The translations under genes were made by a program, and so were the position numbers. From NCBI GenBank assembly GCA_964343605.1, contig CAYFKJ010000003.1, forward strand, positions 73,474-137,473: DNA of 64,000 nt. The letters run 5' to 3'. This document shows, one piece after another, positions 35,872 to 61,177 of this stretch. Source of the stretch: an uncultured Rhodospirillaceae bacterium (GTDB lineage Bacteria > Pseudomonadota > Alphaproteobacteria > UBA2966). The notes below the pieces were generated by a model that saw only the letters and a program-made list of their open reading frames with translations, was not told where the DNA came from and searched no databases. Numbering within the stretch: position 1 is the first letter of the stretch; every line of letters begins with the position of its first letter.

Positions 35872-36220
35872 GTCTTGTCGGGTATACCACTGTTTGTGGC
35901 CGGAAATCGAATTTGCTCGGGATGACCGGCGTGAATTTGCTGTCCGCGTATTCCACATTTATAGGTTGGGATTGAAAACCTACCAATTTCTAACGCTCTA
36001 CGGAAATACTTGACTGCTGTTGTCGGAATAACTATATCCTTGTCAGCGTTAGGGAGCCGAGCCTTGCTTTCTGTTTGCCGGATTCGGATAAAATCCGGCG
36101 GATTCAACAAAGCCCGTCCTCCGCGAAGCGTAGCCGGAAATGGTTGCTAATCCGTTGAATCCAATGGATTTCAGCCAAACCGGTCCATGCAACACGAGGG
36201 ATGCGGTCGGGGAATATATC

Positions 36221-37009
36221 ATGTCCGGTGGTCCGATGTTCAAGAATATTGGTTACGACATAGCAGCGGTGTTCGAGCGTGACCCTGCGGTGCGCTCAAA
36301 ACTCGAGGTCTTCCTGTGCTATCCGGGTTTCCATGCCGTCTTGATCTACCGCCTGGCGCACGCGGTCTGGATCCGGCGCTGGTTCCTCTTGGGGCGCTTT
36401 CTGTCGCACCTCGGACGGTTCCTGACAGGGATCGAAATCCATCCCGGCGCCGTTATCGGCAAGGGCATGTTTATCGATCACGGCATGGGCGTCGTTATCG
36501 GTGAAACGTCGGTGCTAGGCGAGAACGTCACGCTTTATCATGACGTTACGCTGGGCGGCATCTCGCCGGCGGAAAACTCGTCGGCCCAAGTCTCGCAAAA
36601 ACGCCACCCAACGCTGGAAGACGGCGTAATTGTCGGTTCCGGCGCTCAAATCCTCGGACCCATCGTGATCGGCGCCAACGCGCGGGTGGGCGCCAATTCC
36701 GTGGTTTTCAAGAACGTACCGGCCGGCGCGACGGTCGTCGGTATTCCCGGCAAGCTTGCGGGCGCCGCAAAACCAAGGCCCGCAGAGCGCCGGTTCGAGC
36801 CTTACGGGACGCCGGCAAGCGAGATATCGGATCCGGTGGCGCGGTCGATCGATGGACTGCTCGACCAGGTGCAGACGCTGAATACCCGGGTCGCGGAATT
36901 GGAAGCCGCGCTTGGCGCTGCCAAGAAGAATGAGTGGCCGCTCGAGGAAGAAACCGCTGACGCAGGCATAGATGCAGCAACGGATACCGATACCAAGCTC
37001 AACGTTTAG
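36221..37009 (+). CDS. cysE: serine O-acetyltransferase
   Basis: Hexapeptide LbH region [44 protein letters not shown]. The start is approximate. Confidence 0.85.
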
Positions 37010-37060
37010 CTAACCGGGCCGCGCCGATTTTTGCCGCGGGGCCGAAATGGGAGAGAACAA

Positions 37061-37549
37061 GTGAAACTCAGCACCAAAGGACGGTACGCCGTAATGGCGA
37101 TGGCTGACCTGGCAATTCAAAGTGCGGGACGGCCGGTCTCGTTGGCAGATATTGCCGCGCGTCAGGAAATCTCGCTTTCCTACCTGGAGCAGTTGTTCGG
37201 AAAATTGCGGCGCTGCGGACTGGTCAAAAGCGTCCGGGGCCCAGGCGGCGGCTATATGCTGGGCCGAGGTCCGGAGGAAATTCGCATTTCCGACATCGTC
37301 CTGTCGGTTGACGAACCTCTGACGGCAACGCGATGTACGCCCGGTTCGCCCACTGGCTGTCACAGCAACCAGGGGCGCTGCCTGACCCATGATCTTTGGG
37401 AAGAACTGTCCAACCAAATCCACCTCTATTTGTCCTCGGTCACGCTCGACGATGTAGTCAGTCGCCGTATTCTCGGCACCAGTGGCGTGCTGGCGGCCGC
37501 TTCGGTTGAACCGGACTTGGCTGGTCTGGTGCCGCAGGAGGCGGTGTGA
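37061..37549 (+). CDS. iscR: Rrf2-family Fe-S cluster regulator
   Basis: (V)KLSTKGRYAVMAMADLA HTH region. Three Cys (C..C.....C) for cluster ligation. Its position is first in the isc operon. Confidence 0.8.
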   Translation: MKLSTKGRYAVMAMADLAIQSAGRPVSLADIAARQEISLSYLEQLFGKLRRCGLVKSVRGPGGGYMLGRGPEEIRISDIVLSVDEPLTATRCTPGSPTGCHSNQGRCLTHDLWEELSNQIHLYLSSVTLDDVVSRRILGTSGVLAAASVEPDLAGLVPQEAV

Positions 37550-38691
37550 GCCAACCCCTCGCATATCTCGACTACAACGCGACGGCTCCGGTTAGATCCG
37601 GCGTCGCGGAAGTAGTCGCCGACGCGCTGTCGGTAGGCGGAAATCCATCTTCCGTCCACCGTTCCGGCCGCGCGGCGCGGGCATTTGTCGAGCGGGCGAG
37701 GGATCAGGTGGCGGCACTCGTCGGGGCCGGTACGGAAACGGTAGTTTTCACCAGCGGTGGTACCGAGGCCAACAACCTTGCGCTCAAGGGTCTTGCCCGG
37801 GCGGGGCGTCGACTAATTGTTTCGGCGGTGGAGCACGCCTCCGTGGCTGTGCCCGCTGAAGAGGCCGGAGCGGACATAATCCCGGTCGATGCCGACGGCA
37901 TCGTTGATTTGACGGCTTTGGAAAGTCTGCTTGCGGACAATCAGGAACCGGCACTGGTGTCGGTCATGTTGGCCAACAACGAAACCGGCGTTGTTCAACC
38001 CGTGGCGGAGGCCGCGGAGGTCGCGCACCGTCATGGCGCTCTGATGCATTGCGATGCCGTTCAGGGTCCGGGACGGCTGGTTGTTGATGTGGCGGCCCTG
38101 AACGTAGATCTTCTGACTTTGTCGGGCCATAAGCTTGGCGGGCCGCAGGGTGTGGGCGCGCTCGTTATCGGACCGGCTGCACACGAACTTAAGGCAATTG
38201 TTTCGGGCGGCGGTCAGGAACGCGGACTGCGCCCCGGTACGGAAAACGTCTCCGGCATCGCGGGATTTGGACTGGCGGCGGAGCTCGCCGGCACAGATAT
38301 GGATCGCGCCGCGGAAATCGCCGCGCTGCGTGACGGTCTTGAAGCAACCTTGACGGCGATAGCGCCAGAGCTGGTCGTCGCCGGCGTCAACGCCCAGCGG
38401 CTCTGCAATACCTCAACCATTATCGCGCCTGGTCTTGATAGCGAGACGCAGGTCATGGCGCTTGATCTGGCCGGTGTGGCGGTGAGTGCCGGGGCTGCAT
38501 GCTCCTCGGGCAAGGTGGCGTCCTCGGACGTGCTCGCGGCCATGGGTATGTCCGCAGAACAGGCCGGCTGCGCCATCCGCGTGAGTCTCGGTACGGACAC
38601 CCAAAAAGGCGATATCGATCGTTTTGTTATGGCTTGGCGTGAACTTTACGAGCGCCTGAGTATTGGCAAGGAAGCGTTGTCGGCGGCCTGA
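37546..38691 (+). CDS. cysteine desulfurase (NifS-like, first of two)
   Basis: Class-V aminotransferase, with SGHKLGGPQGVGALV around the PLP lysine. Start overlaps the iscR stop. Confidence 0.85.
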   Translation: MSQPLAYLDYNATAPVRSGVAEVVADALSVGGNPSSVHRSGRAARAFVERARDQVAALVGAGTETVVFTSGGTEANNLALKGLARAGRRLIVSAVEHASVAVPAEEAGADIIPVDADGIVDLTALESLLADNQEPALVSVMLANNETGVVQPVAEAAEVAHRHGALMHCDAVQGPGRLVVDVAALNVDLLTLSGHKLGGPQGVGALVIGPAAHELKAIVSGGGQERGLRPGTENVSGIAGFGLAAELAGTDMDRAAEIAALRDGLEATLTAIAPELVVAGVNAQRLCNTSTIIAPGLDSETQVMALDLAGVAVSAGAACSSGKVASSDVLAAMGMSAEQAGCAIRVSLGTDTQKGDIDRFVMAWRELYERLSIGKEALSAA

Positions 38692-38725
38692 GTGCGGCTG
38701 AACTAGGAACAAGGATTATTAAGGC

Positions 38726-39967
38726 ATGAACGACCTGTCCACGGGCACCAACATGAAAACGCCCATTTACCTGGATTATCAGGCGACGACGCCGGTGGAC
38801 CCGCGCGTACTGGAAGCGATGATGCCGTATTTCACCGCGAAGTACGGCAACCCCCATTCGCGCAGCCATTCCTTCGGGTGGGAGACCGAGGAGGCCGTCG
38901 AAGCGGCGCGCGGCCAGGTGGGCAGCCTGATCGGCGCCAACGCCAAGGAGATCATTTTCACCTCGGGCGCCACCGAATCCAATAACCTGGCGCTCAAGGG
39001 CGTGGGCCGGTTCTACAAGGACAAGAAGAACCACATCATCACGACGGTGACGGAGCACAAGTGCGTGCTCGATACCTGCCGCCACCTGGAGCAGGAGGAA
39101 GGCTTCGAGGTCACCTACCTGCCGGTCGCCGAGAACGGTCTCATCAATCTCGACGATTTGCGGGCGGCCATCACCGACAAGACCGTTTTGGTCTCCGTCA
39201 TGGCCGTGAACAACGAAATCGGCGTCATCCAGCCGCTCAAGGAAATTGGCGCTATCTGCCGTGAGAACAAGGTGTTCTTCCACACGGATGCGGCTCAGGC
39301 CGCAGGTAAGATTCCGCTCGACGTCGACGAAATGAATATCGACCTGATGAGCATTTCGGGCCACAAGATTTACGGTCCAATGGGCATCGGTGCGCTCTAT
39401 GTTCGCCGCAAGCCCCGCGTCCGCCTGCGGCCCATGATCAACGGCGGCGGTCAGGAGCGCGGCATGCGGTCCGGAACGCTGGCGCCGCCGCTCTGTGTCG
39501 GGTTGGGTGAGGCCTGCGCCATCGCCGAGGCCGATATGTCGTCCGACAACGAACGTATCCGCATGCTGTCTGACCGGTTCTACGACAAGATCACGGACAA
39601 GCTGCCCGAAGTCTTCCTCAACGGCGACCGCGAGCAGCGCTTCCCAGGCAACCTCAATCTCAGCTTCGCCTACGTCGAGGGCGAATCGCTGATGATGGGT
39701 ATCCGGGATCTGGCCGTGTCGTCGGGTTCGGCCTGTACCTCGGCTTCGCTGGAGCCCAGCTACGTGCTGCGGGCGCTCGGCGTGGAAGAGGAACTGGCGC
39801 ACACCTCACTGCGCATCGGCATCGGACGGTTTACGACAGAGGCGGAAATCGACTACGCCGTCGACACGCTGGTGGAGGCGGTCGAAAAACTGCGCGCCAT
39901 GAGTCCGCTTTGGGAAATGGCGCAAGAGGGAATTGATTTGAAGTCCATTGAATGGGCTGAGCATTGA
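38726..39967 (+). CDS. iscS: cysteine desulfurase IscS
   Basis: [39 protein letters not shown] and [21 protein letters not shown], the catalytic Cys loop. Confidence 0.9.
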
Positions 39968-40033
39968 GACGAATTGCCACGCTGCAAATTAGTCTTAATC
40001 TGATAGAAATGGTGGAGAGGTTGGAGACCGGAA

Positions 40034-40459
40034 ATGGCATATAGCGACAAACTTTTGGACCACTACGAAAACCCGCGCAACATCGGTGCTTTCGAGAAGG
40101 ACGATGACGCGGTGGGGACCGGTCTGGTGGGGGCGCCCGCGTGCGGTGACGTCATGAAGCTTCAGATCAAGGTGTCCGCCGACGGCATCATCGAAGACGC
40201 CAAGTTCAAGACGTTCGGCTGCGGTTCGGCGATCGCCTCGTCGAGCCTGATCACCGAATGGGTCAAGGGCAAGAGCCTCGACGAAGCCGGCGAGATCAAG
40301 AACACCGACATCGCCCAGGAACTGGCGCTGCCACCGGTCAAGATCCACTGTTCGGTCCTGGCCGAGGATGCGATCAAGGCGGCGATCACCGACTACAAGG
40401 GCAAGGGCGGCGCCGACGCGGCACCCGCGACCGGCGAGGAAGTCAAGGAAACCGCGTGA
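40034..40459 (+). CDS. iscU: Fe-S cluster assembly scaffold
   Basis: MAYSDKLLDHYENPRNIGAF...GAPACGDVMKLQIKV. Confidence 0.92.
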   Translation: MAYSDKLLDHYENPRNIGAFEKDDDAVGTGLVGAPACGDVMKLQIKVSADGIIEDAKFKTFGCGSAIASSSLITEWVKGKSLDEAGEIKNTDIAQELALPPVKIHCSVLAEDAIKAAITDYKGKGGADAAPATGEEVKETA

Positions 40460-40494
40460 GTGGTGGCGAGACGATTAACAAGGATTAGTTTGGC

Positions 40495-40827
40495 ATGGCA
40501 CAGATGATCACACTTTCGGACAACGCCGTGGAGCGCATCCAGGCGTTGTTGAGCAAGCGCGACAATCCGGACATGGGCTTGCGCATCGGCGTGCGGACCG
40601 CGGGCTGCTCCGGCCTGTCGTACACGCTCGAGTATGCCGAAGAACCCGAGGAGTTCGACGAAGTTGTCGAGGACAAGGGCGTGAAGGTTTTCATCGACCC
40701 CAAGGCGACGATGTTCATCGTCGGCACCGAAATGGATTTCGTCGAGGAAAAGCTGCAGTCCGGGTTCGTGTTCAACAACCCCAACGAAAAAGGCAAGTGC
40801 GGTTGCGGCGAATCCTTCCACGTCTAG
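40495..40827 (+). CDS. iscA: iron-sulfur cluster insertion protein (HesB/IscA family)
   Basis: C-terminal GCGCGESFHV. Confidence 0.9.
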   Translation: MAQMITLSDNAVERIQALLSKRDNPDMGLRIGVRTAGCSGLSYTLEYAEEPEEFDEVVEDKGVKVFIDPKATMFIVGTEMDFVEEKLQSGFVFNNPNEKGKCGCGESFHV

Positions 40828-40862
40828 GCGACCAGTAGGACCACGCGTGACCCCGGGGGGCC

Positions 40863-41555
40863 TTGCGCCCCCCATATTCATGCCCTGAGGCGGTAAAGAG
40901 AACAAAGACCGTGCACGACGGAGACGATCAACTCATCATCTCGGAGGCCTTGCAGCCGGCCCAAAGCGTTCCCTGCTGGTCCTGCAAGGGCGGCGTGGAC
41001 GGTCGGGCGCCGTTTTGCCATGCCTGCGGCGTAATTCAGCCGCCGCGCCCGGCCGACGATTTTCAGCGCCTGGGACTGGCCAGCCATTTCGACGTCGACC
41101 CCAAGGATTTGGAAAAGCGTTACTTCGCCTTCCAGCGGACGTTTCATCCCGACCGCTTCGCCACCAAGACGGCGCGCGAGCGGCAGTATTCCCTGCAGCA
41201 TGCCACGGGCTTGAATGAGTCCTACGAACGGCTCAAGGCGCCGTTGACGCGGGCCCAGTCCCTGCTGGTCGCCATGGGTGGGACATTGCCTGATGAGGCC
41301 CATACCGAGGGCGATCCCGAGTTGCTCATGGAGGCGATGGAAAGCCGCGAAGCCCTGGCCGAAGCCGACACGGCCGAGGCCGTAGCCGCCCTTGAGGTCA
41401 AGGCGCGGGTCGATATCGAAGTCTGTGAGGAGGCACTGTCGCTGGCCTTCGCCGTCGAAGATCTCGACGGCGCCGCCAATCTGATTACGCGCCTCAAATA
41501 TCTGGTTAAGTTATACGACGAGATTCGGCGCAAGCGCCGGAGCGTACAAGGTTAG
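40863..41555 (+). CDS. hscB: Fe-S co-chaperone HscB with N-terminal tetracysteine (CxxC...CxxC) extension
   Basis: J-domain (DFQRLGLASHFDVDPKDLEKRYFAFQRTFHPDRF) preceded by CWSCKGGVDGRAPFCHACG. Confidence 0.8.
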   Translation: MRPPYSCPEAVKRTKTVHDGDDQLIISEALQPAQSVPCWSCKGGVDGRAPFCHACGVIQPPRPADDFQRLGLASHFDVDPKDLEKRYFAFQRTFHPDRFATKTARERQYSLQHATGLNESYERLKAPLTRAQSLLVAMGGTLPDEAHTEGDPELLMEAMESREALAEADTAEAVAALEVKARVDIEVCEEALSLAFAVEDLDGAANLITRLKYLVKLYDEIRRKRRSVQG

Positions 41556-41561
41556 TATTCA

Positions 41562-43463
41562 ATGGTCGAACTCCTGCAAATTCACGAACCGGGCGAGACG
41601 CCTTTGCCCCATGCCGGCGAGGAGGTCGCCGTCGGCATCGATCTCGGCACGACGAACTCGTTGATCGCCATCGCCCACGACGGTGAGCCCGAGGTTCTGC
41701 GCGGTCCGGACGGCAAAACGCTGATCCCCTCCGTCGTCGCCTATGGCGACGGTGAGGCGGTGGTGGGTGAGGGCGCCCGGCGCGTCATCATGGATAGCCC
41801 GGAACGTGTCGTGTCGTCCGTGAAGCGGCTGATGGGCCGTGGCCTCGAGGACCTCAAATCGCTGGGCGGCGCCGTGCCCTACGATGTCGACGCCGATATG
41901 GAATCCGGCGGCATGGTCCGCCTCAACGTGGCGGGTCATCGCCTGACGCCGGTGGAAGTTTCATCGCACATCCTCGGCGCGCTGAGGGCTTTGGCCGAGG
42001 CCTCGCTCGACCGCACCATCGACAAGGCCGTAATCACCGTTCCCGCCTATTTCGACGACGCCGCGCGGGCGGCCACCAAGGATGCCGCCAAGCTCTGCGG
42101 TCTCCAGGTTCTACGGCTGGTTAACGAGCCGACGGCGGCGGCGCTGGCGTATGGACTGGATAAGGACGCCGAGGGGCTGTACGCGGTCTACGATCTGGGT
42201 GGCGGCACCTTTGACATTTCCATCCTGCGCATGGAGATGGGCGTCTTCCAGGTTCTGGCGACCGGTGGCGATGCCCAGTTGGGCGGCGACGATTTCGATC
42301 ACGCCGTGGCCACGCACTTCCTCGGCCAGCGCGAAGACCGGCCCGCGGATGCCAAGATTTCCCCGGGCGAAGCCAAAACCGCCATGATGACGGCCCGCCT
42401 GGTCAAGGAATGCCTGACCGATCAGGAGCAGGGCCGCTGGATGCTCGACGTCGAGGGTGAGGCGACCTGGCACGAACTAGACCGCGCGAAATTCGAGGAC
42501 CTGATCGGCGACATTGTCGATCGCACGATTAGCCTGTGCCGCGGCGTCATGGACGACGCCGACGTCTTCCCCGAGGACATCAAGGGCGTTGTCCTGGTTG
42601 GTGGCTCGACCCGGGTCCCGCTTGTCCGCAAGCGCGTTGCCGAACTGTTCGGCCAAAAGCCGCTTTCCGATATTGATCCGGATCAGGTCGTGGCTCTTGG
42701 TGCCGCGCTTCAAGCCGAGGCCCTGACGATGGGGTCAAACGCGCTGCTGCTGGACGTCACGCCTTTGTCGCTGGGTATCGAAACCATGGGCGGGCTGGTC
42801 GAAAAAGTCGTTCACCGCAACACGCCGATCCCCGTGGCCCGGGCCCAGGAATTCACAACCTACAAGGACGGCCAGACGGCCATGGCCATCCACGCCGTTC
42901 AGGGCGAACGCGAGATGGTCGACCAGAACCGCTCGCTGGCGCGCTTCGAGTTGCGCGGCATCCCGGCCATGGCGGCGGGAGCGGCGCGCATCCTGGTAAC
43001 CTTCGCGGTCGATGCCGATGGATTGCTGACCGTCAGCGCCGTCGAACAGAGCACCGGCATGGAAGCCCATGTCGAGGTCAAACCGAGCTACGGCCTGTCG
43101 GACGACGATATGGCACGGATGCTGCGGGAAAGCATGGAATTCGCGCGCGACGACATGACGGCGCGCCTGTTCGCCGAAGCCTGCGTCGAGGCTGAGCGCA
43201 TGCTGTTGGCTTTCGACGCGGCGCTGGAGTTGGACGGCGATCTCGTGAAGTCCGAGGAAAAAGAGGAAATCGAAGCCAGGATTACCGAATTGCGCGAAGC
43301 GATGGAGGGTGACGACCGGGATGCCGTGAACGGGGCAGTCGAAGCGTTGAACGCCGCAACCGAACCCTTCGCCGCGCGCCGTATGGATCGCCAGATCAGG
43401 GGGGCGCTGACCGGCGTTGCCATCGACGAACTGAATGAAGATGCCGAGATCGGCGAAGTGTAA
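41562..43463 (+). CDS. hscA: Fe-S chaperone HscA (Hsp70 family)
   Basis: [21 protein letters not shown] and [12 protein letters not shown] motifs. Confidence 0.92.
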
Positions 43464-43588
43464 TTTTGCGGCGATCAGTCGCACATAACCGGGCTGGTAA
43501 TTGCCCGCCGTCCGCGCTATGTCGTACCGCTGTTTTGTAATCTGCCCCCGGCCTGTTTCGTGCCGCTACATGTTTTCGGAGTTTGCTC

Positions 43589-43924
43589 GTGCCTAAGATG
43601 ACTTTCATCGATCCGCAGGGAAATGCCAAGGAGGTCGACGCACCTCTCGGTCTTTCGGTACTGGAGATCGCCCACCGCAACAAGATCGACCTGGAAGGGG
43701 CGTGCGAGGGGTCGCTGGCCTGTTCGACGTGCCACGTCATCGTCGACGACGAGTATTTCGACGACCTGCCCGAAGCGACCGAGGACGAGGAAGACATGCT
43801 GGACCTGGCCTTCGCCCTGACGCACACCTCGCGGCTGGGTTGCCAGATCATCATTACCGAAGAACTGGACGGACTGACCGTGACCTTGCCGGCGGCCACG
43901 CGCAATATGATGGTGGACGCCTGA
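43589..43924 (+). CDS. fdx: [2Fe-2S] ferredoxin, ISC type (adrenodoxin-like)
   Basis: [12 protein letters not shown]...SRLGCQI. Confidence 0.88.
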
Positions 43925-43944
43925 CGACAACGAAAGGGGGCGAC

Positions 43945-44145
43945 ATGCAGCTTAAGTGGACCGACGTCAACGATATCGCGATTGAGCTGGAAGACGCCCA
44001 CCCGGACGTGGATGTCGTCAATCTGCGCTTCACCGACCTGCACCGCTGGGTCACCGAACTGCCCGAATTCGACGACGATCCCAACCGCTCCAACGAAAAA
44101 ATCCTCGAGGCCATCCAGATGGCCTGGCTCGACGAGCGCGACTAG
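43945..44145 (+). CDS. iscX: Fe-S assembly protein IscX (YfhJ)
   Basis: 66-aa acidic protein MQLKWTDVNDIAIELEDAHPDVDVVNLRFTDLHRWV. AAGGGGG RBS. Confidence 0.8.
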   Translation: MQLKWTDVNDIAIELEDAHPDVDVVNLRFTDLHRWVTELPEFDDDPNRSNEKILEAIQMAWLDERD

Positions 44146-44148
44146 TCT

Positions 44149-44964
44149 GTGGCCCGCAGCCCGCAGGAGATCCAGGACACCACCCGCTTCATCGACGTCT
44201 ACCGGCGTGCCCAGGCGCCTGCCATGTTGGACGTCGAGGAAATCGCCTGCGGCTGCCGTTACGGCGCCACGAGTTGGGCGACCCTTGACGAGGTCCGGGC
44301 GATCGCCCGACTGCTCGACCTGGGACCCGGCAGGAAGCTCCTGGAAATCGGAGCCGGGTCCGGCTGGCCTTCCCTGCAACTTGCCGAAAGAAGCGGGTGC
44401 GATGCGGTTCTGACGGATCTCCCCATCTCCGGCATTCAGATTGCCGGTGAGAGGGCGCGGGCTGACGGCTTGAGCCATCGGTGTTTTGGCCTGCTGGCGG
44501 ACGGATCTCACCTGCCTTTCGCCGAGGCCGCATTCGATGCCGTTCATCACGCGGATGTTCTTTGCTGCTTGAAGTCGAAGCGGGAGGTTCTGAGGGAGTG
44601 CCGGCGCATCATGCGGTCTAACGGCAGAATGGCTTTCTCCGCGATCTTCATGGCGGCGGAATTGGCGCCAACCGAAACCGAACTCGCCGTCGCCGCCGGA
44701 CCGCCGTTCATGGAGATGAAAGGGACATATCCGACGCTTATGACGGAAACCGGCTGGCGACTGGTGGAAACTCATGATTTGACGGACGCCTTCCTCTCCA
44801 CGGCCGAGCGCCTGGTGGTGGAGGAAGAGGCGCGGGCGGCCGTTCTTGAACCGCTTCACGAAAAGGGCGAGTTCAACGCCCGCTTGAACCGCCACCGCGC
44901 CAAGATCGAGGCTCTCGGACAGGGTCTGATCCGGCGCGAATTGTATATCGCCGAACCTGTCTAA
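44149..44964 (+). CDS. class I SAM-dependent methyltransferase
   Basis: SAM motif I LLEIGAGSGWPSL. It starts 3 nt after the iscX stop. Confidence 0.6.
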   Translation: MARSPQEIQDTTRFIDVYRRAQAPAMLDVEEIACGCRYGATSWATLDEVRAIARLLDLGPGRKLLEIGAGSGWPSLQLAERSGCDAVLTDLPISGIQIAGERARADGLSHRCFGLLADGSHLPFAEAAFDAVHHADVLCCLKSKREVLRECRRIMRSNGRMAFSAIFMAAELAPTETELAVAAGPPFMEMKGTYPTLMTETGWRLVETHDLTDAFLSTAERLVVEEEARAAVLEPLHEKGEFNARLNRHRAKIEALGQGLIRRELYIAEPV

Positions 44965-45012
44965 GGGTCCCGAAACGGGCTATCATTCGCCGGAACCAAC
45001 CCTTGGGGGGGA

Positions 45013-46695
45013 TTGATGATCGCGCGCATTCGGCTTTATTCCGGCATGGTCCTGCTGGTTTTCGTCACGGGACACCTGTTCAACAGTTCGCTGGGCGTCT
45101 TCTCGTTCGAAGCGATGGATGCCGCATCCCAGTTCACGACCCGCCCCTGGCGCACGATTCCAGGCACCGTTCTTCTGCTCGGCGCCTTCCTGACGCATAC
45201 CACCCTGTCGATGAGGTCGCTGTTTTTTCGTCAAACGCTGAGGATGAAACCCTGGGAGGCCACCCAGAATATTTTGGGCATCCTCATTCCCTTATTGGCG
45301 TTCGGTCATGTCATTGCCATGCGCGGTTTGGTCGAGTTCATGGGTTTGAAAACCGGGTACGCCCTGGAAATGGTCGCCCTGTTCGTGGTGCGTCCGGATT
45401 TCGGCGCGATCCAAGTGGGGCTCGTCCTGCTTACCTGGATTCACGGCTGCATCGGTTTGCACACCTGGGCCCGCCTGAAACCGGGATACCAGAAATTCCA
45501 AGGCTGGGTACTCTCGCTGGCTGTCGCCTGGCCCGTCATGGCGTTGTCCGGCTATGTCGCGGCAGGGAACCGGGCGCAGCGGATGGTGGCGGACGAGGAA
45601 TGGCTCGGCGGCGTCATCAAGACCTCCGGTTTCAACGACGAAATGTTTGCGGCGGCCCTTCAATGGAACATCAATTTCTGTATTGGATATTTGGTATTGC
45701 TGGCGCTTCTGTTCGGCGCCCGCTGGATCCGGCTGGCCATCGCCAAGCGTGAAACGCCGATGGTCTTGCATTACCAGGGCGGTCGGGAGATCACCGCCAT
45801 ACCCGGCGCCACGGTTCTGGAATCGCTGCGGGCCGGCGGTATCCCACATGCCTCCGTGTGCGGCGGACGCGGGCGCTGCTCAACCTGCCGTATCCGCGTG
45901 GGGCGCGGCGCGGACTGGCTCAATCCCCCGGATGAAAACGAGGTCAAAGTATTGGAGCGCATTGCGGCGCCACCGTCGGTGCGGCTGGCCTGCCAGGTGC
46001 GGCCCAAGGTCGATCTCGAAATCGCGCCGCTCTTGTCGCCCGAGGCAACCGCGTCCGACGGCTTCGAACAGCCGGGTTACCTGGCGGGGCAGGAGGTCGA
46101 GGTCGCCTTCGTGTTCGTCGACCTGCGCGGCTCGACCGGGCTATCGGAAGGACGCCTGCCCTACGACTTCGTCTTCGTGCTCAACCAGTTTTTCGCCGCC
46201 ATCGACGGCGCGCTGCAGGAAACCAACGGCCATTACGCCCAGTTCAACGGCGACGGCCTGATGGCGATCTACGGTTTGAACTCGGGCATCGAACAGGGCG
46301 CCCTGGAAGCCGTTCAGGGTGCCCAGGCCATGATGCGCCGCATCGCCGAATTGAACGAACGCTTGAAAGCCGAGCTACCGGCGCCCTTGGCCATCGGAAT
46401 CGGCATCCACAGCGGCGAGGCCATTGTCGGTAGCATGGGGCCGCCCGACCATCCGATTATTTCGGCCATCGGCGATCACGTGAACATCGCCGCCCGCCTG
46501 GAAGCCAAGTGCAAGGACTTCGGCGTGCCGCTGATCGTCTCGGCCATCACGGCGGAGAAAGCCGGCGTCGACCTCGGCGGATTCCAACAGGAAACCGTCG
46601 ATGTCCGCGGCCGCGACGGCAATATCCGCATCTGGGTGATCGACGATCCTTCGAAAATCGATCTTGCGAAGACGAAAGAAACGGTGCCCGCCTGA
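45013..46695 (+). CDS. membrane-anchored class III adenylate/guanylate cyclase with an internal [2Fe-2S] ferredoxin domain
   Basis: Six-helix hydrophobic N-terminus with conserved His residues in the helices. A plant-type Fer2 module (CGGRGRCSTCRIRV...LACQV). A CHD cyclase domain (FVFVDLRGSTG; NGDGLMAIYG; IGDHVNIAARLE). Confidence 0.8.
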   Translation: MMIARIRLYSGMVLLVFVTGHLFNSSLGVFSFEAMDAASQFTTRPWRTIPGTVLLLGAFLTHTTLSMRSLFFRQTLRMKPWEATQNILGILIPLLAFGHVIAMRGLVEFMGLKTGYALEMVALFVVRPDFGAIQVGLVLLTWIHGCIGLHTWARLKPGYQKFQGWVLSLAVAWPVMALSGYVAAGNRAQRMVADEEWLGGVIKTSGFNDEMFAAALQWNINFCIGYLVLLALLFGARWIRLAIAKRETPMVLHYQGGREITAIPGATVLESLRAGGIPHASVCGGRGRCSTCRIRVGRGADWLNPPDENEVKVLERIAAPPSVRLACQVRPKVDLEIAPLLSPEATASDGFEQPGYLAGQEVEVAFVFVDLRGSTGLSEGRLPYDFVFVLNQFFAAIDGALQETNGHYAQFNGDGLMAIYGLNSGIEQGALEAVQGAQAMMRRIAELNERLKAELPAPLAIGIGIHSGEAIVGSMGPPDHPIISAIGDHVNIAARLEAKCKDFGVPLIVSAITAEKAGVDLGGFQQETVDVRGRDGNIRIWVIDDPSKIDLAKTKETVPA

Positions 46696-46708: not shown

Positions 46709-46993
46709 ATGCTGTTCATGGTGATCGAGACCTTCCGCGATCAGAATGCCAAGGCGGTCTACGCGCGCTTCCGGGAGAAGGGGCGCATGTTGCCGGCGGG
46801 TCTGGAATTCGTGGACTCCTGGGTCAGCGCCGATCTTGGCCGCTGTTTCCAGGTCATGGCTTGCGAAGACGTCGCGTTGCTGCAGCAGTGGGTGACGAAC
46901 TGGTCCGACCTCGTCGAGTTCGAAATCGTGCCGATCGTGCCCGGATCCGACGCCGCCAAGGCTGTTCAAGCAAGCGAAAGTGAACGGGCTTGA
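46709..46993 (+). CDS. DUF3303-family small protein
   Basis: Starts MLFMVIETFRD. GGGAG RBS. Confidence 0.5.
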   Translation: MLFMVIETFRDQNAKAVYARFREKGRMLPAGLEFVDSWVSADLGRCFQVMACEDVALLQQWVTNWSDLVEFEIVPIVPGSDAAKAVQASESERA

Positions 46994-48482: not shown

Positions 48483-50231
48483 CTACTCGAGGCCGGCCAG
48501 CCTCAAGCCCTCGATGAGTTTGTCGAGATCTTCCTTGACTGCATAAGGCTGGGTCGCCTCGATCAGTGCCAGCGTGCTGTCGGGATAGAGGGCTTTGTAC
48601 CGATCCATGACCTCGCGGGCTTCATCGATCCTACCCAGTTGGGCAAGTGCAGCGCTTTTGACACGATAGGCGCCGGGAAAATCGGGCCGGTCCTGCAGTG
48701 CCAGATCCATACATCTGGAGGCTTCCTCGTACTGGCCGCCAACGAAATGCGCGACCGCCTTCGACGCCACGAAATAGGGCACCTGGGGATCCCTTGGGCT
48801 GAGGCGCAGGGCCTGTTCGATGTCGGCCAAGGCGTCGTCACAGTTCCCGCCGAATCCTTTTGCTAAACCCCGATAGCCGAAAGCGGTGGCGCTGTTGGGG
48901 TTGAGATCGAGCGCGCGGGTCAGTTCGCTGATGGCGCCGTCGGGATTGCGGTGCATCATCTGCAGATAACCTAGCGCGATGTGCGCCCAGGAATCCCGCT
49001 CGTCCATGACCGCGGCCTTCCGCGCCAGGCGTTCGGCTTCATCCAATTCGGGTTCCCTGGCGCGCCAACCCATATGAATGGAAACGATGTACATGAAGGC
49101 CAGCGCGCTGCTGGCGAACGAAAGATCGGGGAAGTCTTCGACGACTTTACGCATCAGCCGGATGGCTTCGTCGGTATCGGCTTTGTTCAGCAGCCAAAAA
49201 TGCGTCCGCGCCTTCATCAGGGTTTCCCAGGCCGAAATCTGCGAAGGATCACGCTTGGAGGCGTTGTGTCCCTCCAGGGCGAAGACCTCGGGCTCGACGG
49301 CCGCCGCGATATTGCGGGTGATTTCGTCCTGCAGGTCGAAGATATCGACGACCTGCCGGTCGAAGCGCTCAGCCCATACGTGATTGCCGGAGCTGCCCTC
49401 GATCAGCTGAACGTTGATGCGCATGCGGTCGCCGGATTTGCGCACGCTGCCCTCGATGACGTAGCGGACGTCGAGTTCCTTCGCCACTTCGGCGACGTTT
49501 ACCGCCCGGCCCTTGTAGGTAAACGTGGTGTTGCGCGCGATCACCGTCATCCAGCGATTGCGCGAAAGTTCGGTGATGATGTCCTCGGTGACACCATCGA
49601 CGAAATATTCCTGTTCCGGATCCCCGGACATATTGTCGAACGGAAGGACAGCGAGTGAAGGCTTGTCGGATGTAGCAGACGAGGCTGTTTCCGCAACGGG
49701 GTCGGGCACTGGTGTCTCGGGCTTCGCAATCGAAACGCCGTAAACCCTGACCGGGGCGGACACATGCTTGACCTCATGCTCGCCGAGGTCTTCGAACTCG
49801 TAATCCAGCCGGTTCCGCACCTGTTCGAAGACGCCGCCGGAAATACAGACGGCGCCCGGTTCCGCCAGAGCCTCGATGCGGGCGGCGATGTTGACGCCTT
49901 CGCCGTGGATGTCTTCGCCGTCGTCGATGATGTCGCCGAGGTTGACGCCCATGCGGAAATCCAACTGGCTTCCAGCCAGCCCCTGCTGCATGTCGACGGC
50001 GCAAGTTACGGCGTTCTGCACGGTCGGGAATTCCGCCAGAAAACCGTCGCCTGTGTGTTTCACAATACGTCCGGAATGATTGTCGATTATGGGATCGATG
50101 ACGTCGGAGCGAGCTGCCTTCCAGGCGGCAACGGTGCCGTCCGTGTCTTGCTCCATAAGACGTGTGTAGCCCACGACGTCAGCCGCCAAAATCGCCGACA
50201 GCCGCCGCGCGTCACCACCCCCTTCACTCAT
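48483..50231 (-). CDS. adenylate/guanylate cyclase (class III) fused to a TPR/BTAD-like regulatory domain
   Basis: N-terminal CHD (ADVVGYTRLME...HTGDGFLAEF...GVNIAARIEALA) and C-terminal TPR helices. Start taken at MSEGGG with a GGGGGA RBS. Confidence 0.8.
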   Translation of the reverse strand: MSEGGGDARRLSAILAADVVGYTRLMEQDTDGTVAAWKAARSDVIDPIIDNHSGRIVKHTGDGFLAEFPTVQNAVTCAVDMQQGLAGSQLDFRMGVNLGDIIDDGEDIHGEGVNIAARIEALAEPGAVCISGGVFEQVRNRLDYEFEDLGEHEVKHVSAPVRVYGVSIAKPETPVPDPVAETASSATSDKPSLAVLPFDNMSGDPEQEYFVDGVTEDIITELSRNRWMTVIARNTTFTYKGRAVNVAEVAKELDVRYVIEGSVRKSGDRMRINVQLIEGSSGNHVWAERFDRQVVDIFDLQDEITRNIAAAVEPEVFALEGHNASKRDPSQISAWETLMKARTHFWLLNKADTDEAIRLMRKVVEDFPDLSFASSALAFMYIVSIHMGWRAREPELDEAERLARKAAVMDERDSWAHIALGYLQMMHRNPDGAISELTRALDLNPNSATAFGYRGLAKGFGGNCDDALADIEQALRLSPRDPQVPYFVASKAVAHFVGGQYEEASRCMDLALQDRPDFPGAYRVKSAALAQLGRIDEAREVMDRYKALYPDSTLALIEATQPYAVKEDLDKLIEGLRLAGLE

Positions 50232-50316
50232 TACCAAATTCCCCCAAGTAAGCCCTCGGGGCGATTGTACGTCATCTGAAAGGCTGGTGCGACCCCGCGG
50301 GGAGCCGGGAAATCGG

Positions 50317-51141
50317 TCAATCGTCGGGCTTCCCGCCCAATTTTTCCTTGCGCAGGCGCTCCTCGTACTGGCCCACATAAGAGGTATGCGTCACCAGCCC
50401 GGTGGCTTCGTCCCAGGTATGGAGATAGACGGCGGGCGGTTCCATGACCAGCACCAATGGGGCGTCCTCGCCCATTTCGAGGCCGATCTGGTGGGCCGTG
50501 CTGGGCGCGACCGAGACACAAGTACCGGCCCAGCTAATGGTGATGGGCCGGTGCAGGTGGCCGGCGGTGACCCGCAGGACCTGGGGATGGCGCTGGACGA
50601 CCTCCATCATCGGCGTCGGGTTGTCGAAGCCGTGACGGTCCATGATCTCGATGCCGCTGGTGATCGGCGGGTGGTGCATGAAGATCAGCGTCGGGCGATC
50701 AGGTTCCGCCCCCAACGTGGCATCCAACCAGGCCAGGCGTTCGGTGCACATGGTACCGCCGATCTCGCCCTCGATCTGGGTGTCCAGCCCGACCAGGCGC
50801 AGCGGGTAATCCTCCAGGGCGTAGTGGATGAAGCCATCGGCCGGCAAATAGTCGTGATCGGGAAAGGCGGCTCTTAGATGCTTGCGGGAATCGTGGTTGC
50901 CGGGAATGACGTAGAGCGGCATGTCCAGCGGCGCGAAAAGCTCCCGCAAGACTTCGTATTCTTCCGGCTTGGCCCAGTCGACGAGGTCGCCGGTGGCGAG
51001 CACGACATCCGGCAGCGGGTCCATCGCCATGATATGGGCGACGGCCCGGGCCAGATGGTCGCAGGTCTGGTAGTTGCCGTCCGAATCCTTTCCACGCTCG
51101 GAAACGTGGAGGTCGGAAATTTGGGCGGCGATGAAGGTCAA
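50317..51141 (-). CDS. calcineurin-like metallophosphoesterase, class III cyclic-nucleotide phosphodiesterase (CpdA-like)
   Basis: The motif series D-x-H (ISDLHV), GDLVD, GNHD, HHPP and GHLH, with the spacing of CpdA/Rv0805-type PDEs. Confidence 0.65.
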   Translation of the reverse strand: MTFIAAQISDLHVSERGKDSDGNYQTCDHLARAVAHIMAMDPLPDVVLATGDLVDWAKPEEYEVLRELFAPLDMPLYVIPGNHDSRKHLRAAFPDHDYLPADGFIHYALEDYPLRLVGLDTQIEGEIGGTMCTERLAWLDATLGAEPDRPTLIFMHHPPITSGIEIMDRHGFDNPTPMMEVVQRHPQVLRVTAGHLHRPITISWAGTCVSVAPSTAHQIGLEMGEDAPLVLVMEPPAVYLHTWDEATGLVTHTSYVGQYEERLRKEKLGGKPDD

Positions 51142-57895: not shown

Positions 57896-58080
57896 TTCCT
57901 TTCAGGTTGGTGCCTACATCGGATCCGGGCCCCGGGAGATACTGCCGCCAGTCATAAACCGTTTCCTTTCCGCCAATGGGTGGCGGTGCAAGGCGTGGAC
58001 GCCCCGCAACTGCCGAACTATTGCCGTGCCACGAAAATATCCGGTACCGCCGATGTCGGGCGCAACGCCACCATCAATTT

Positions 58081-58310
58081 CTGAAATATGAACGCGGGCG
58101 GATATTTGTTTTCGAAATTTGAATAGAATATTTGAAATTTCCACTACTTAAGATACTGTTGAAAAAATTTAATCTTAAAAAAAGACGGTGATTACAATTG
58201 TATGCACGCTAAAATGGCGAAAATGGAATTGCCGTCACCGAACTTAAGTTGCTTAACTGCGGAACAAAACTTAGGAAAAACTGAAGTAAAAAAACTAAAC
58301 AAATAGGGAA
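58081..58310. promoter_or_regulatory. AT-rich (~30% GC by eye) promoter/boundary region of the low-GC island
   Basis: An abrupt compositional drop relative to the ~65% GC flank. Contains TTTGAAAT-type repeats and the palindrome GAAATTTC. Confidence 0.4.
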
Positions 58311-58871
58311 ATGAAAGAACAACTTATGAACCCCAGAAGTTGGTATTATCAAGACAAAGAAAAATTTCCGAATTTTCCCGATTTTGCCAATCTGTATAGG
58401 GATTGTGACGGCACCATACTTTTCAGGTCGGATTGTGGTTCCCAATCCTGTGGTTCCGCTGACTGCTGTCACTCGACCGGTGAAGACAGTTTTATTTTCT
58501 TTCTTCCGGGCGAGTTCGAATTTCAGACGTCCCAGGACCCCGCAATTCCATTTCATTCGGTATCCGAACAATTCTCGGACCGTTTTCACTGTTCCGGCAA
58601 TGCCGATTGCATTTACGAGGCCCGCCCGCTCGATTGCAGGAGCTATCCGTACTTTCCCGCGGTAATCGATATGGAACACGTGGGGTATTTCGACTGCCGC
58701 AGATCCCATGCATGTCCACTAAGAATTGATCTGGAATTGAGGGATCATCTTAAGAAAATACACAAATGGTGGCGTGTTCTCCTTAAAAACGAAGAAGTAA
58801 AAATATGGGCTAATGCTATGAGTAGGCACTGTAAATCTTTGCCAATTATGGAAATTCCGGAATTTAAATAA
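58311..58871 (+). CDS. YkgJ-family cysteine-cluster protein (putative Zn/Fe-chelating CxxCxxCC domain)
   Basis: SDCGSQSCGSADCC cluster plus downstream CIYEARPLDCRSYPYFP, resembling the PF03692 pattern. Low GC. Confidence 0.5.
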   Translation: MKEQLMNPRSWYYQDKEKFPNFPDFANLYRDCDGTILFRSDCGSQSCGSADCCHSTGEDSFIFFLPGEFEFQTSQDPAIPFHSVSEQFSDRFHCSGNADCIYEARPLDCRSYPYFPAVIDMEHVGYFDCRRSHACPLRIDLELRDHLKKIHKWWRVLLKNEEVKIWANAMSRHCKSLPIMEIPEFK

Positions 58872-58887
58872 ATGGTGTGAGGAAAAA

Positions 58888-60285
58888 ATGGCCGAATATT
58901 CGGACAATTTCTATAATACATTCGCGCGGGATGCCCTCAAGGGGCTGTCGTTATTTGGCACGGCCGGCAATCCCCTGCGCGAGGAGATGTTCGTCAGCTC
59001 GAGCCTGCCGGAAGCACGAATTCGCTTCCTGGTGGATGCCGATATTCCATCCACATACGAGGTCGAAAGCTACATCAAAAAGTTCGCCGACTTCGTTTCC
59101 GTATTCCTGATTGCCTCCCGGCTTGCCGAGGTACCGGTCCCACCTTCCATTGAAATCGAAAAGTACGTCGACCTTCTGATCAGGATTGTTGGCGGTTCCG
59201 GCGATGGCGAGGTGCCGCGCAAGCGGGAGGATATGCACTACAACCCCTCGCCCGCACTATCAGCCCAACTCGGAACTCCATTCATCGATTTCTGCGGGAG
59301 CTTCGCCGTTACCCTTATCGATTATCTCACTTATGCCGGCAAGGACAACATGTCAGCCGACGTTTCCGGGATGGCCAAGAGAGAAGTTCTGCAAATCCTG
59401 CATTTCCTGACCGACCCGGAAACCTTCATCGAGGTTGATGAGAAAATCGGTTGGGCTTTCGTGAGCGGGAGCGACTGTGACGACGGCAAGGGAATTCCCA
59501 TTCCGGATCAGCGGCACATCCTTCCGACCGCCTGGGCTGTCACGGCGCTCGCCAGGGGGTGGGCCTTGTGCAAGGAACTGGGCGAAGAAGCAGAACTGCG
59601 GAAGAAGATCAAGGGCGAGATTCTCCCGAAGGCACTGGCCTGGATCGATACGCTGAAGACCGAGAACGGTCTTTACAAGATCTCGGCTGTCGAGCGCGAT
59701 TTCGATTTGGTCGGCCACAATTTTGCCACTGAAACGCTCATAACGATGTCAGACATGGAAATTCCGGGCTCGGTTGAGGAAAGCATCGAGGCGGTTGAGC
59801 GATTCACACAGCTTCTGGATGAAGACTATCAAGGTACGTACGAAAATTTTGAAGCGAATATCGGATACCGGGTTTACGTGAAATCCAAGCCCGTAATTTC
59901 CTATGACGACAAAACGACATGGGCCCACTGTCTTTCGACGTTGGCGCTGTCGTTCTCGGCGTTGGAAAAAAGGTCTGATGCGACCGAGGAATTGCGGGAA
60001 AAGCTACGAAATCACTGTGTCTCAATGGCCGATCAAATCATCAACGTTCGGCGAAACTCTGAGAGCGGCCTTTGGGATGAAAAATACCTCCAGATTCACT
60101 GGAACCTGGCGGCGGTCGAAGCCTTGTTGAGGCTGGAAAACTTCGTGAGCATCGAGCGCTACGAAATAAGCGACGAACACATCAGGTCGGCCGTCGCGCG
60201 TCTCATGGATAGCGTCGAATTTCAATCCTCGTTGGAGGAGCATTTGATCGGTGCGCTCAGCAGAGTTCGAAAAGTATCCAAATAG
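58888..60285 (+). CDS. hypothetical protein (465 aa, no recognisable domain)
   Basis: Clean ORF with a GAGGA RBS 6 nt upstream. Low GC. Second gene of the island operon. Confidence 0.5.
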   Translation: MAEYSDNFYNTFARDALKGLSLFGTAGNPLREEMFVSSSLPEARIRFLVDADIPSTYEVESYIKKFADFVSVFLIASRLAEVPVPPSIEIEKYVDLLIRIVGGSGDGEVPRKREDMHYNPSPALSAQLGTPFIDFCGSFAVTLIDYLTYAGKDNMSADVSGMAKREVLQILHFLTDPETFIEVDEKIGWAFVSGSDCDDGKGIPIPDQRHILPTAWAVTALARGWALCKELGEEAELRKKIKGEILPKALAWIDTLKTENGLYKISAVERDFDLVGHNFATETLITMSDMEIPGSVEESIEAVERFTQLLDEDYQGTYENFEANIGYRVYVKSKPVISYDDKTTWAHCLSTLALSFSALEKRSDATEELREKLRNHCVSMADQIINVRRNSESGLWDEKYLQIHWNLAAVEALLRLENFVSIERYEISDEHIRSAVARLMDSVEFQSSLEEHLIGALSRVRKVSK

Positions 60286-60336
60286 AAATTCGCTTCCCAA
60301 ATAAAACCAAGAACAAAACGAATAGAGGTTCGGCTG

Positions 60337-61134: not shown

Positions 61135-61177
61135 GGCATTGACCTGATTCGGATCTTCTTCGAGGAGAGCGTGCCAT

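Follow-up and report, generated by a model that had tools for sequence, protein, structure and literature searches.

The gene described here lies in a 64,000-nucleotide (nt) stretch of DNA from an uncultured Rhodospirillaceae bacterium (assembly GCA_964343605.1, contig CAYFKJ010000003.1, positions 73,474 to 137,473), which we call the window and on which all coordinates are given. In the list of open reading frames (ORFs), positions 45016-46695 (+) code for a membrane-bound cyclase of 559 aa that ends at a TGA stop codon (46693-46695). Six transmembrane (TM) helices are followed by a Fer2 [2Fe-2S] domain and then by a cyclase domain of class III, and the gene lies downstream of a cluster of isc genes for iron-sulfur (Fe-S) biogenesis. 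On balance, and with moderate confidence, we favour the reading that the protein is a class III nucleotidyl cyclase, integral to the membrane, probably a homodimer and regulated by redox state, with two predicted hemes and a predicted [2Fe-2S] cluster.

The ORF can also be read from a TTG codon at 45013, which gives 560 aa. The ATG at 45016 is the likelier start, because a database protein of identical sequence (P0001, 559 aa) and all homologs begin at that Met; residues are numbered throughout on the 559-aa protein. A first-pass annotation of the window, made from the letters and the ORF list, had described an ORF with about six TM helices, a Fer2 domain and a cyclase domain, and this organization was confirmed by the ORF list, Pfam, hydropathy and AlphaFold. 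The first ~245 residues have no match in Pfam, and the hydropathy profile shows six hydrophobic segments. In the full-length AlphaFold model the single domains are confidently predicted (predicted local distance difference test, pLDDT, 86.9).

This architecture has been described before. Beltz et al. (2016; eLife 5:e13098, PMC4821796) clustered the six-TM anchors of cyclases and assigned to their cluster 1 a set of 30 class IIIb enzymes of alpha- and beta-proteobacteria, in which a ferredoxin separates anchor and catalytic domain; Q132R4 of Rhodopseudomonas palustris is one example (PMC4821796). The cluster 1 anchors contain four precisely spaced intramembrane His residues, and the authors predicted two hemes (PMC4821796). 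The window protein likewise has six TM helices, four intramembrane His residues, a ferredoxin between the anchor and the cyclase homology domain (CHD) and the class IIIb residue Ser483. It shares with cluster 1 the domain order, the alpha-/beta-proteobacterial range and the two-heme prediction, with no architectural difference, and as judged by every feature that can be tested on sequence it is a new member of this predicted family. Our literature searches found no experimental or biochemical follow-up on the cluster 1 family, and Q132R4 appeared in no other paper of the searchable literature. Since the architecture was published in 2016 and no follow-up was found, the first-pass annotation had rediscovered a published, untested prediction: the domain organization and the two hemes were not novel, but the linkage to isc genes was. 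From the sequence comparisons, we regard as new here the isc linkage of one clade, the residue-level register with the cytochrome subunit FrdC together with the loss of FrdC functional Glu residues, and a non-canonical, family-variable specificity pair, to which the predicted fold of the membrane domain can be added. The family itself has become large. A profile of the membrane domain detected 2,667 representatives (50%-identity clusters, E<=1e-3), compared with the 30 sequences known in 2016, and homologs with the full architecture are abundant, with more than 100 clusters at 45-86% identity among the matches listed.

The evidence for hemes comes from the membrane domain. An AlphaFold model of residues 1-250 (pLDDT 93.4; predicted TM-score, pTM, 0.85) contained six long helices at residues 2-28, 48-71, 79-109, 127-152, 158-190 and 208-246. 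We compared this model with the Protein Data Bank (PDB) using Foldseek, and the only matches with a TM-score above 0.5 were 1E7P_C and 1QLB_C, subunit C (FrdC) of the quinol:fumarate reductase (QFR) of Wolinella succinogenes (TM-score 0.55-0.57, probability 1.00). Subunit C of the Desulfovibrio gigas QFR followed (5XMJ_C, 0.40-0.45), and no other match exceeded 0.38. Cytochrome b561 was rejected as a relative, with a TM-score of only 0.32-0.36 (4O6Y). Ferric-reductase domains of the NOX/STEAP/MsrQ type (the 'FRD families' that the first-pass annotation had suggested as a search target) were rejected as well, since they carry two His on each of two helices, whereas here there is one on each of four.

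Conservation was counted in an alignment of 176 full-length homologs, reaching down to ~32% identity. H20, H61, H98 and H143, which sit one per helix on TM1-TM4, are invariant in all 176, as is W141. The earlier observation of His residues placed inside the helices is thus confirmed for these four, to a degree well beyond chance; H149, also flagged at that time, is kept in only 137. We then aligned the membrane-domain profile with a profile of 38 FrdC-family sequences, using an FrdC sequence identical to 1QLB_C. The hhalign alignment was collinear over 176 columns (E 2.6e-4) and paired H20, H61, H98 and H143 with FrdC H44, H93, H143 and H182; in addition, the conserved Q84, G88 and G147 were co-aligned with the invariant FrdC residues Q129, G133 and G186. 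(An earlier hhalign run against a single FrdC sequence had placed TM3 on FrdC TM1 with a non-significant probability of 1.6%, and is superseded by the 38-sequence profile.) In FrdC, H44 and H143 reportedly ligate the distal heme, and H93 and H182 the proximal heme. TIGR02046, the di-heme b558 family, was a recurrent weak match, found in 17 of 26 members with a best E of 3e-4. Together, the fold match, the four His on the FrdC heme ligands and this weak family match bear out the di-heme b-type membrane module that had been proposed, as a prediction.

The topology can be read from the loop charges. The cytoplasmic loops contain 10 Lys plus Arg and 1 Asp plus Glu, and the periplasmic loops 5 and 6, respectively, which fits an N-in/C-in topology. 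Therefore, H20 and H98 would lie near the periplasmic face, and H61 and H143 near the cytoplasmic face. The sixth TM helix is an addition relative to FrdC and is needed to bring the chain back to the cytoplasm. The window protein thus shares with W. succinogenes FrdC (1QLA/1QLB/1E7P; TIGR02046) the fold, the His register on four helices, the co-aligned Gln and Gly residues and the N-in orientation. In contrast to FrdC, which is encoded beside its flavoprotein (A) and Fe-S (B) partner subunits and binds to them, it is fused to Fer2 and the CHD, and frdA- or frdB-like neighbours are lacking both from the window and from 80 related loci.

Pfam recognized the Fer2 domain at residues 257-332 with E 4e-9 and 36.7 bits, where the cut-off is 21. 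Its cysteines are arranged as C282-X5-C288-X2-C291-X34-C326, each kept in 174-175 of the 176 homologs, which supports the earlier prediction of a [2Fe-2S] Fer2 domain. Plant-type Fer2 domains have the spacing C-X4-C-X2-C-X29-C. The best relative was the N-terminal region of NqrF, a TM helix followed by Fer2 (TIGR01941, E 8e-11, residues 243-337), and the PDB matches were NqrF (8A1T_F, E 3e-7) followed by putidaredoxin and adrenodoxin; ISC-type ferredoxin was also among the best relatives. Because these are its best relatives, the label 'plant-type' given by the first-pass annotation is imprecise, and both the spacing and the relatives point to the NqrF/vertebrate type. NqrF, of the Na+-translocating NADH:quinone reductase, shares the C-X5-C-X2-C spacing and a Fer2 domain tethered to the membrane behind a TM helix. 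Unlike NqrF, the window protein has no FAD/NADH-binding domain, and the match is limited to one domain (41.5 bits against an equivalog cut-off of 295). We also considered whether this Fer2 is a duplicate of the operon's own Fdx, and rejected it: the two are only 32% identical over 76 aa, a generic similarity. The full-length AlphaFold model puts the end of TM6 at residue 245-246 and the start of the first Fer2 strand at 250, a gap so short that Fer2 must sit at the membrane surface. Residues 351-355 of the linker that follows have a pLDDT below 50, and the linker contains only a 3-residue helix; no long helical transducer was predicted.

The catalytic domain was recognized as Pfam Guanylate_cyc at residues 363-534 (E 1e-13, 51.3 bits against a cut-off of 21.9). 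Its nearest solved counterparts are the guanylate cyclase Cya2 of Synechocystis (2W01, E 2e-20) and CyaC of Arthrospira/Spirulina (1WC0, E 2e-12), whose N-terminal sensor modules differ from that of the window protein. The metal-binding Asp369 and Asp413 and the transition-state Asn490 and Arg494 align with those of CyaC and Cya2 and are kept in 164-172 of the 176 homologs, so that the catalytic machinery looks intact. The substrate-specifying positions differ: Cya2 has Glu/Gly, CyaC has Lys/Thr and the window protein has Gln/Ser. Gln409 falls on the adenine-specifying Lys of CyaC and on the Glu of Cya2, and Ser483 aligns with the CyaC Thr in 'dfTaiG'. Class IIIb is said to be defined by a Thr or Ser where other cyclases have the Asp that binds the substrate. 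The 'complete CHD' of the first-pass annotation therefore holds for the metal and transition-state residues but not for the specificity Lys, and its label 'adenylate' does not follow from a purine-specifying pair that is Gln-Ser and not Lys-Asp/Thr. Across the family, position 409 is Gln in 116, Lys in 31 and Glu in 14 of 176, and position 483 is Ser in 100 and Thr in 63. The pairs found were Gln-Ser (98), Lys-Thr (28), Gln-Thr (16) and Glu-Thr (14), a variation which suggests that sub-families make different cyclic nucleotides.

The product is presumably a cyclic purine nucleotide. Cyclic AMP (cAMP) is the default guess, but it is not assured, because Gln replaces the adenine-specifying Lys, and the Gln-Ser pair leaves the choice open. 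The enzyme might instead be a guanylate, dual-specificity or other-nucleotide cyclase. The position of Gln409, the guanylate cyclase Cya2 as nearest solved homolog and the division of the family over four specificity pairs, suggestive of diversified specificity, speak for this idea, but class III bacterial cyclases with non-canonical pairs have generally proved to be adenylate cyclases, and no cyclic nucleotide monophosphate (cNMP) effector that could help to decide was identified nearby: a scan of the window for cNMP-binding motifs gave no match, although this was a crude regular expression and weak evidence of absence. We consider a non-adenylate enzyme somewhat unlikely. To our knowledge, the sole precedent for Gln at the specificity position is Rv0386 of Mycobacterium tuberculosis, which reportedly has a Gln-Asn pair and a guanylate cyclase side activity.

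Next, we consider the genomic context (Table 1). The first-pass annotation had noted a methyltransferase gene starting 3 nt after iscX and the cyclase 48 nt further on. This is correct for the TTG start (51 nt for the ATG), and the Fe-S biogenesis cluster proved to be larger than had been stated. An additional NifS-like cysteine desulfurase gene lies between iscR and iscS, its start overlapping the end of iscR by 4 nt, and this extended cysE-iscR-nifS-iscS order is common to all linked relatives. The best NCBIfam match of the methyltransferase, to the DVU_1556 family, reaches 61 bits where the cut-off is 155; the gene is inserted only in the window and in its two closest relatives, L001 and L002, and is absent from L003, L082, L083, L087, L088 and L089. 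The transcription unit of the window genome may in fact end with the DUF3303 gene on the other side of the cyclase, and in this lineage the cyclase is the last or last-but-one gene of the putative cysE-iscR-isc-hsc-fdx-iscX operon. Scans for sigma-70 promoters and terminators gave nothing above the shuffled expectation, and no terminator-like site was found on the + strand between 43945 and 45016. In the spacers compared, terminator-like structure was limited to the 98-nt spacer of L003, with a weak hairpin and a T-run.

Table 1. Features of the cyclase gene and its surroundings in the window.
Feature	Position	Strand	Remarks
cysE	36140-37009	+	Upstream Fe-S biogenesis cluster as a whole, 36140-44145 (ORFs, Pfam/NCBIfam)
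iscR (Rrf2)	37031-37549	+	
nifS-like	37546-38691	+	
iscS	38726-39967	+	
iscU	40034-40459	+	
iscA	40495-40827	+	
hscB	40863-41555	+	
hscA	41562-43463	+	
fdx	43583-43924	+	
iscX	43945-44145	+	Pfam Fe-S_assembly, E 7e-34
Class I S-adenosylmethionine (SAM) methyltransferase	44149-44964	+	GTG start, 3 nt after iscX; Pfam Methyltransf_11, E 1.5e-15
Shine-Dalgarno-like G-run, GGGGGGG	45005-45011	+	Just 5' of the start; spacer comparison of window, L001, L003, L083 and L087
Six-TM membrane domain, residues 1-246	45016-45753	+	Predicted di-heme cytochrome b module, FrdC/SdhC-b558 fold with an extra C-terminal TM helix
His20 (TM1)	45073-45075	+	Predicted axial ligand of the distal (periplasmic-side) heme; aligns with FrdC His44
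His61 (TM2)	45196-45198	+	Predicted axial ligand of the proximal (cytoplasmic-side) heme; aligns with FrdC His93
His98 (TM3)	45307-45309	+	Predicted second ligand of the distal heme; aligns with FrdC His143
Trp141	45436-45438	+	Invariant; at the position of FrdC Glu180
His143 (TM4)	45442-45444	+	Predicted second ligand of the proximal heme; aligns with FrdC His182
Fer2 [2Fe-2S] domain, residues 250-337	45763-46026	+	~4 residues after TM6; Pfam PF00111
Cys282	45859-45861	+	Predicted Fer2 ligand
Cys288	45877-45879	+	Predicted Fer2 ligand
Cys291	45886-45888	+	Predicted Fer2 ligand
Cys326	45991-45993	+	Predicted Fer2 ligand
Fer2-cyclase linker, residues 338-358	46027-46089	+	Short, poorly ordered; AlphaFold
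Class III (IIIb-like) cyclase domain, residues 359-542	46090-46641	+	Pfam PF00211; alignment to 2W01 and 1WC0
Gln409 (specificity pair)	46240-46242	+	Alignment to CyaC/Cya2
Ser483 (specificity pair)	46462-46464	+	Alignment to CyaC/Cya2
DUF3303 gene	46709-46993	+	13 nt past the cyclase stop; Pfam PF11746, E 3e-32; same position in L001 and L002 only

We surveyed the neighbourhood of the gene first in 80 genomic loci with homologs and later in a sample of intermediate homologs. In the first sample, isc genes lay upstream only in the three closest loci, L001, L002 and L003 (65-88% identity), and in none of the 77 loci at 52% identity or less. No neighbour was conserved family-wide, the most widespread occurring in 7 of the 80. 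With the intermediate homologs, a monophyletic clade that includes the query, with 16 loci at no less than 58% identity, could be defined (neighbour-joining tree without bootstrap). The linkage was present in 11 of the 16 (the window, L001, L002, L003, P0007, P0008, P0010, P0012, P0014, P0015 and P0016), which lie in three of five subclades. The five unlinked loci (P0003, P0004, P0005, P0011 and P0013) fall in the other two subclades, one nested and one basal. The simplest history is one gain and one loss. Every linked locus has the cyclase at the end of the same-strand series that starts with cysE-iscR-nifS-iscSUA-hscBA-fdx(-iscX), at a distance of 5-98 nt. Downstream of it the neighbours vary: a DsbA protein and a GGDEF response regulator, a metallophosphatase and a thiolase, or DUF3303 and a CoA-transferase.

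These comparisons suggest that the cyclase is probably co-transcribed with the isc genes in the clade of the query, for which they are reasonable evidence but not proof. The co-transcription suggested by the first-pass annotation is thus supported within the clade, by the common strand, gaps of 3 and 51 nt, the lack of a terminator and the 11 linked loci, but it does not extend to the distant loci. Since none of the 77 distant loci is linked, the isc linkage cannot explain the general role of the family. It could even be functionally meaningless, that is, inherited synteny beside an essential and rarely rearranged operon, with the cyclase transcribed and regulated independently. The unlinked distant homologs and the lack of a family-wide neighbour are in accord with this explanation, as are the two subclades that lost or never had the linkage, the methyltransferase that could insert between iscX and the cyclase, the weak hairpin in the L003 spacer and the conserved G-rich, ribosome-binding-like element that the cyclase has of its own. 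However, the linked genomes are not closely related to one another: the junction has been kept across three subclades in which HscA is 73-75% and HscB 61-69% identical to the window proteins, while the downstream side changed every time. The gaps are as small as 5 nt, and the linkage has outlasted both the loss of iscX (L083, L087 and L088) and the methyltransferase insertion, always on the same strand. We regard a meaningless adjacency as possible but doubtful.

Based on these results, we propose the following mechanism, in which the bound cofactors, the partner in electron transfer, the sign of the regulation, the nucleotide made and the co-transcription with isc are all inferred. TM1-4 would form a four-helix bundle like that of the di-heme cytochrome b subunit of the Wolinella quinol:fumarate reductase, in which His20 and His98 would ligate the periplasmic-side heme and His61 and His143 the cytoplasmic-side heme; TM5 would complete the FrdC-like core, and TM6 would return the chain to the cytoplasm. 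Fer2 would pack onto the cytoplasmic side of the heme bundle, where complex II has its Fe-S subunit. The two hemes and the [2Fe-2S] cluster would then make a short electron wire across the membrane, comparable with subunits C and B of complex II. This wire would come to equilibrium with a redox carrier of the membrane or periplasm, for which the quinone pool is the most plausible candidate. The state of the cluster and hemes, in redox or in occupancy, would be relayed through the short linker and set the activity of the cyclase dimer. In the isc-linked clade, the amount of protein, and probably the loading of the cluster, would follow the IscR-controlled biogenesis of Fe-S clusters.

Several results weigh against this interpretation. 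The TIGR02046 score was 16.3 bits (E 0.0058) where 96 are required, and all of its 17 matches stayed far below that cut-off; a HMMER profile of the membrane domain found no PDB sequence at E<=10, and in Pfam the domain gave only noise, with Sdh_cyt appearing in 1 of 26 members at E 1.5. The hhalign match to the FrdC profile had a probability of only 42.5%. Both functional Glu residues of FrdC are replaced: Glu66, of quinol oxidation, aligns with the variable Thr42, and Glu180, of the proton pathway, with Trp141, which is Trp in 176 of 176. The arrangement of the domains relative to one another is not confident in the full-length model (pTM 0.52). To these we add Gln409 at the specificity position, the five unlinked loci of the clade and the 77 unlinked distant ones, and the result that the literature searched gave no measurement of cofactor binding or enzyme activity for any member. 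The window protein has a sixth TM helix and falls far below the cut-offs of TIGR02046 and Sdh_cyt. We treat the membrane domain not as a member of the FrdC/SdhC family but as a remote homolog that would work like a di-heme cytochrome b. The replacement of Glu66 and Glu180 indicates that the module keeps the heme scaffold, not the catalytic chemistry of FrdC. For the same reason a quinone partner is not established; it is plausible from the ancestry of the module and weakened by the loss of the quinol-site Glu.

A further possibility is that the di-heme/[2Fe-2S] cyclase of this clade, which is marine and Rhodospirillaceae-like, belongs to the IscR regulon as a genuine output. It would be produced alongside the Fe-S assembly proteins and, through its own cluster and hemes, report Fe-S supply and the redox state of the respiratory chain as a cyclic nucleotide, which in view of the Gln-Ser pair may be other than cAMP. 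We hold this further step to be unlikely. The main mechanistic rival of the redox-regulated reading for the isc-linked clade is a sensor of cluster occupancy and not a reversible redox sensor. It would respond to the presence or loss of the [2Fe-2S] cluster, and the hemes would be mainly structural or would oxidise or protect the cluster. Loss could occur under iron or sulfur shortage or with O2, NO or reactive oxygen species, as in IscR, FNR and NsrR, and the placement with isc would then create a feedback loop reporting Fe-S supply. At 11 of the 16 clade loci the gene belongs to an isc operon with an Rrf2/IscR gene at its head; this arrangement, the cytoplasmic location of Fer2 beside the output domain and a divergent glutaredoxin gene next to one unlinked relative agree with such a sensor. 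However, the heme-ligand His are as strictly kept as the Cys (176 of 176), which argues that the hemes are integral to function, all 77 distant loci lack the isc association, and four-Cys Fer2-type [2Fe-2S] clusters are in general stable electron carriers. We give this explanation a small chance of being right. Finally, it is very unlikely that the membrane domain is a heme-free receptor for a ligand such as a lipid or quinone analogue, or that the protein is mainly an electron-transfer enzyme whose cyclase answers another input, since, even though the Schultz laboratory showed ligand or lipid regulation through other six-TM cyclase anchors and the catalytic Glu residues of FrdC are missing, four invariant His, one per helix at alternating depths and on the heme ligands of FrdC, are hard to explain without a bis-His di-heme, and the obligatory Fer2 that separates anchor from output suggests a signal carried by electron transfer.

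The role of the six-TM anchors in class III cyclases, those of mammals included, is a long-standing open question. The cluster 1 family is the one case in which sequence alone predicts the cofactors of the anchor (two hemes) and of the linker (a [2Fe-2S] cluster), and because the predicted cofactors are defined, a direct and cheap biochemical test is possible. The isc linkage adds a physiological hypothesis, namely that Fe-S or redox status is passed on as a cyclic nucleotide, and names organisms in which to test it, while the Gln/Lys/Glu variation at the specificity position suggests related sensors using different nucleotides. If the cyclase were indeed an output of the IscR regulon, it would constitute a second-messenger branch of iron-sulfur homeostasis, for which we found no precedent.

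Some further observations concern the surroundings of the gene and its relatives. The run of 6-7 G before the cyclase start occurs in all the spacers compared and is kept across subclades that are otherwise only ~60% identical in protein. It could be a regulatory element, or serve ribosome binding as a site of unusual G-richness. Among the neighbours of related loci, redox or second-messenger themes recur. In the unlinked P0003 (L081), a divergent glutaredoxin gene (7528-7815, -) lies just upstream of the cyclase, and in the linked P0007, P0008 and P0010 a DsbA-family thiol oxidoreductase and a response-regulator GGDEF protein are encoded directly downstream. The window also contains a second class III cyclase two genes downstream (48483-50378, -), with an N-terminal CHD that has the canonical Lys, followed by tetratricopeptide (TPR) repeats. 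This gene is kept at the same place in L001 and L002 (88% identity), and in the unlinked P0004 (L084, 3182-4906) a CHD-TPR cyclase of 47% identity comes right after the di-heme cyclase, overlapping it by 4 nt. The two enzymes may act as a pair, or their proximity may be coincidence.

Within the family, most representatives that appeared to contain only the TM domain, or the TM domain and Fer2, were truncated or frameshifted ORFs. In P0160, TM1-5 are joined to a UbiE-like methyltransferase domain, and in P0206 and P0213 some 180 aa without a Pfam match come after the TM domain and Fer2, a tail that in P0213 resembles a degenerate cyclase domain. These three could be real alternative outputs or artefacts of assembly or frameshift, and we accept none of them as a robust new output architecture on the TM-Fer2 module. 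The methyltransferase of P0160 was also rejected as a Rosetta-stone link to that of the window, the 26% identity over the SAM motif being generic only. Rfam and tRNA scans of the whole window gave no match. Lastly, the G+C content is 0.49-0.51 at positions 58001-62000 and 0.58-0.66 elsewhere in the window, and this stretch could be foreign or otherwise atypical DNA.

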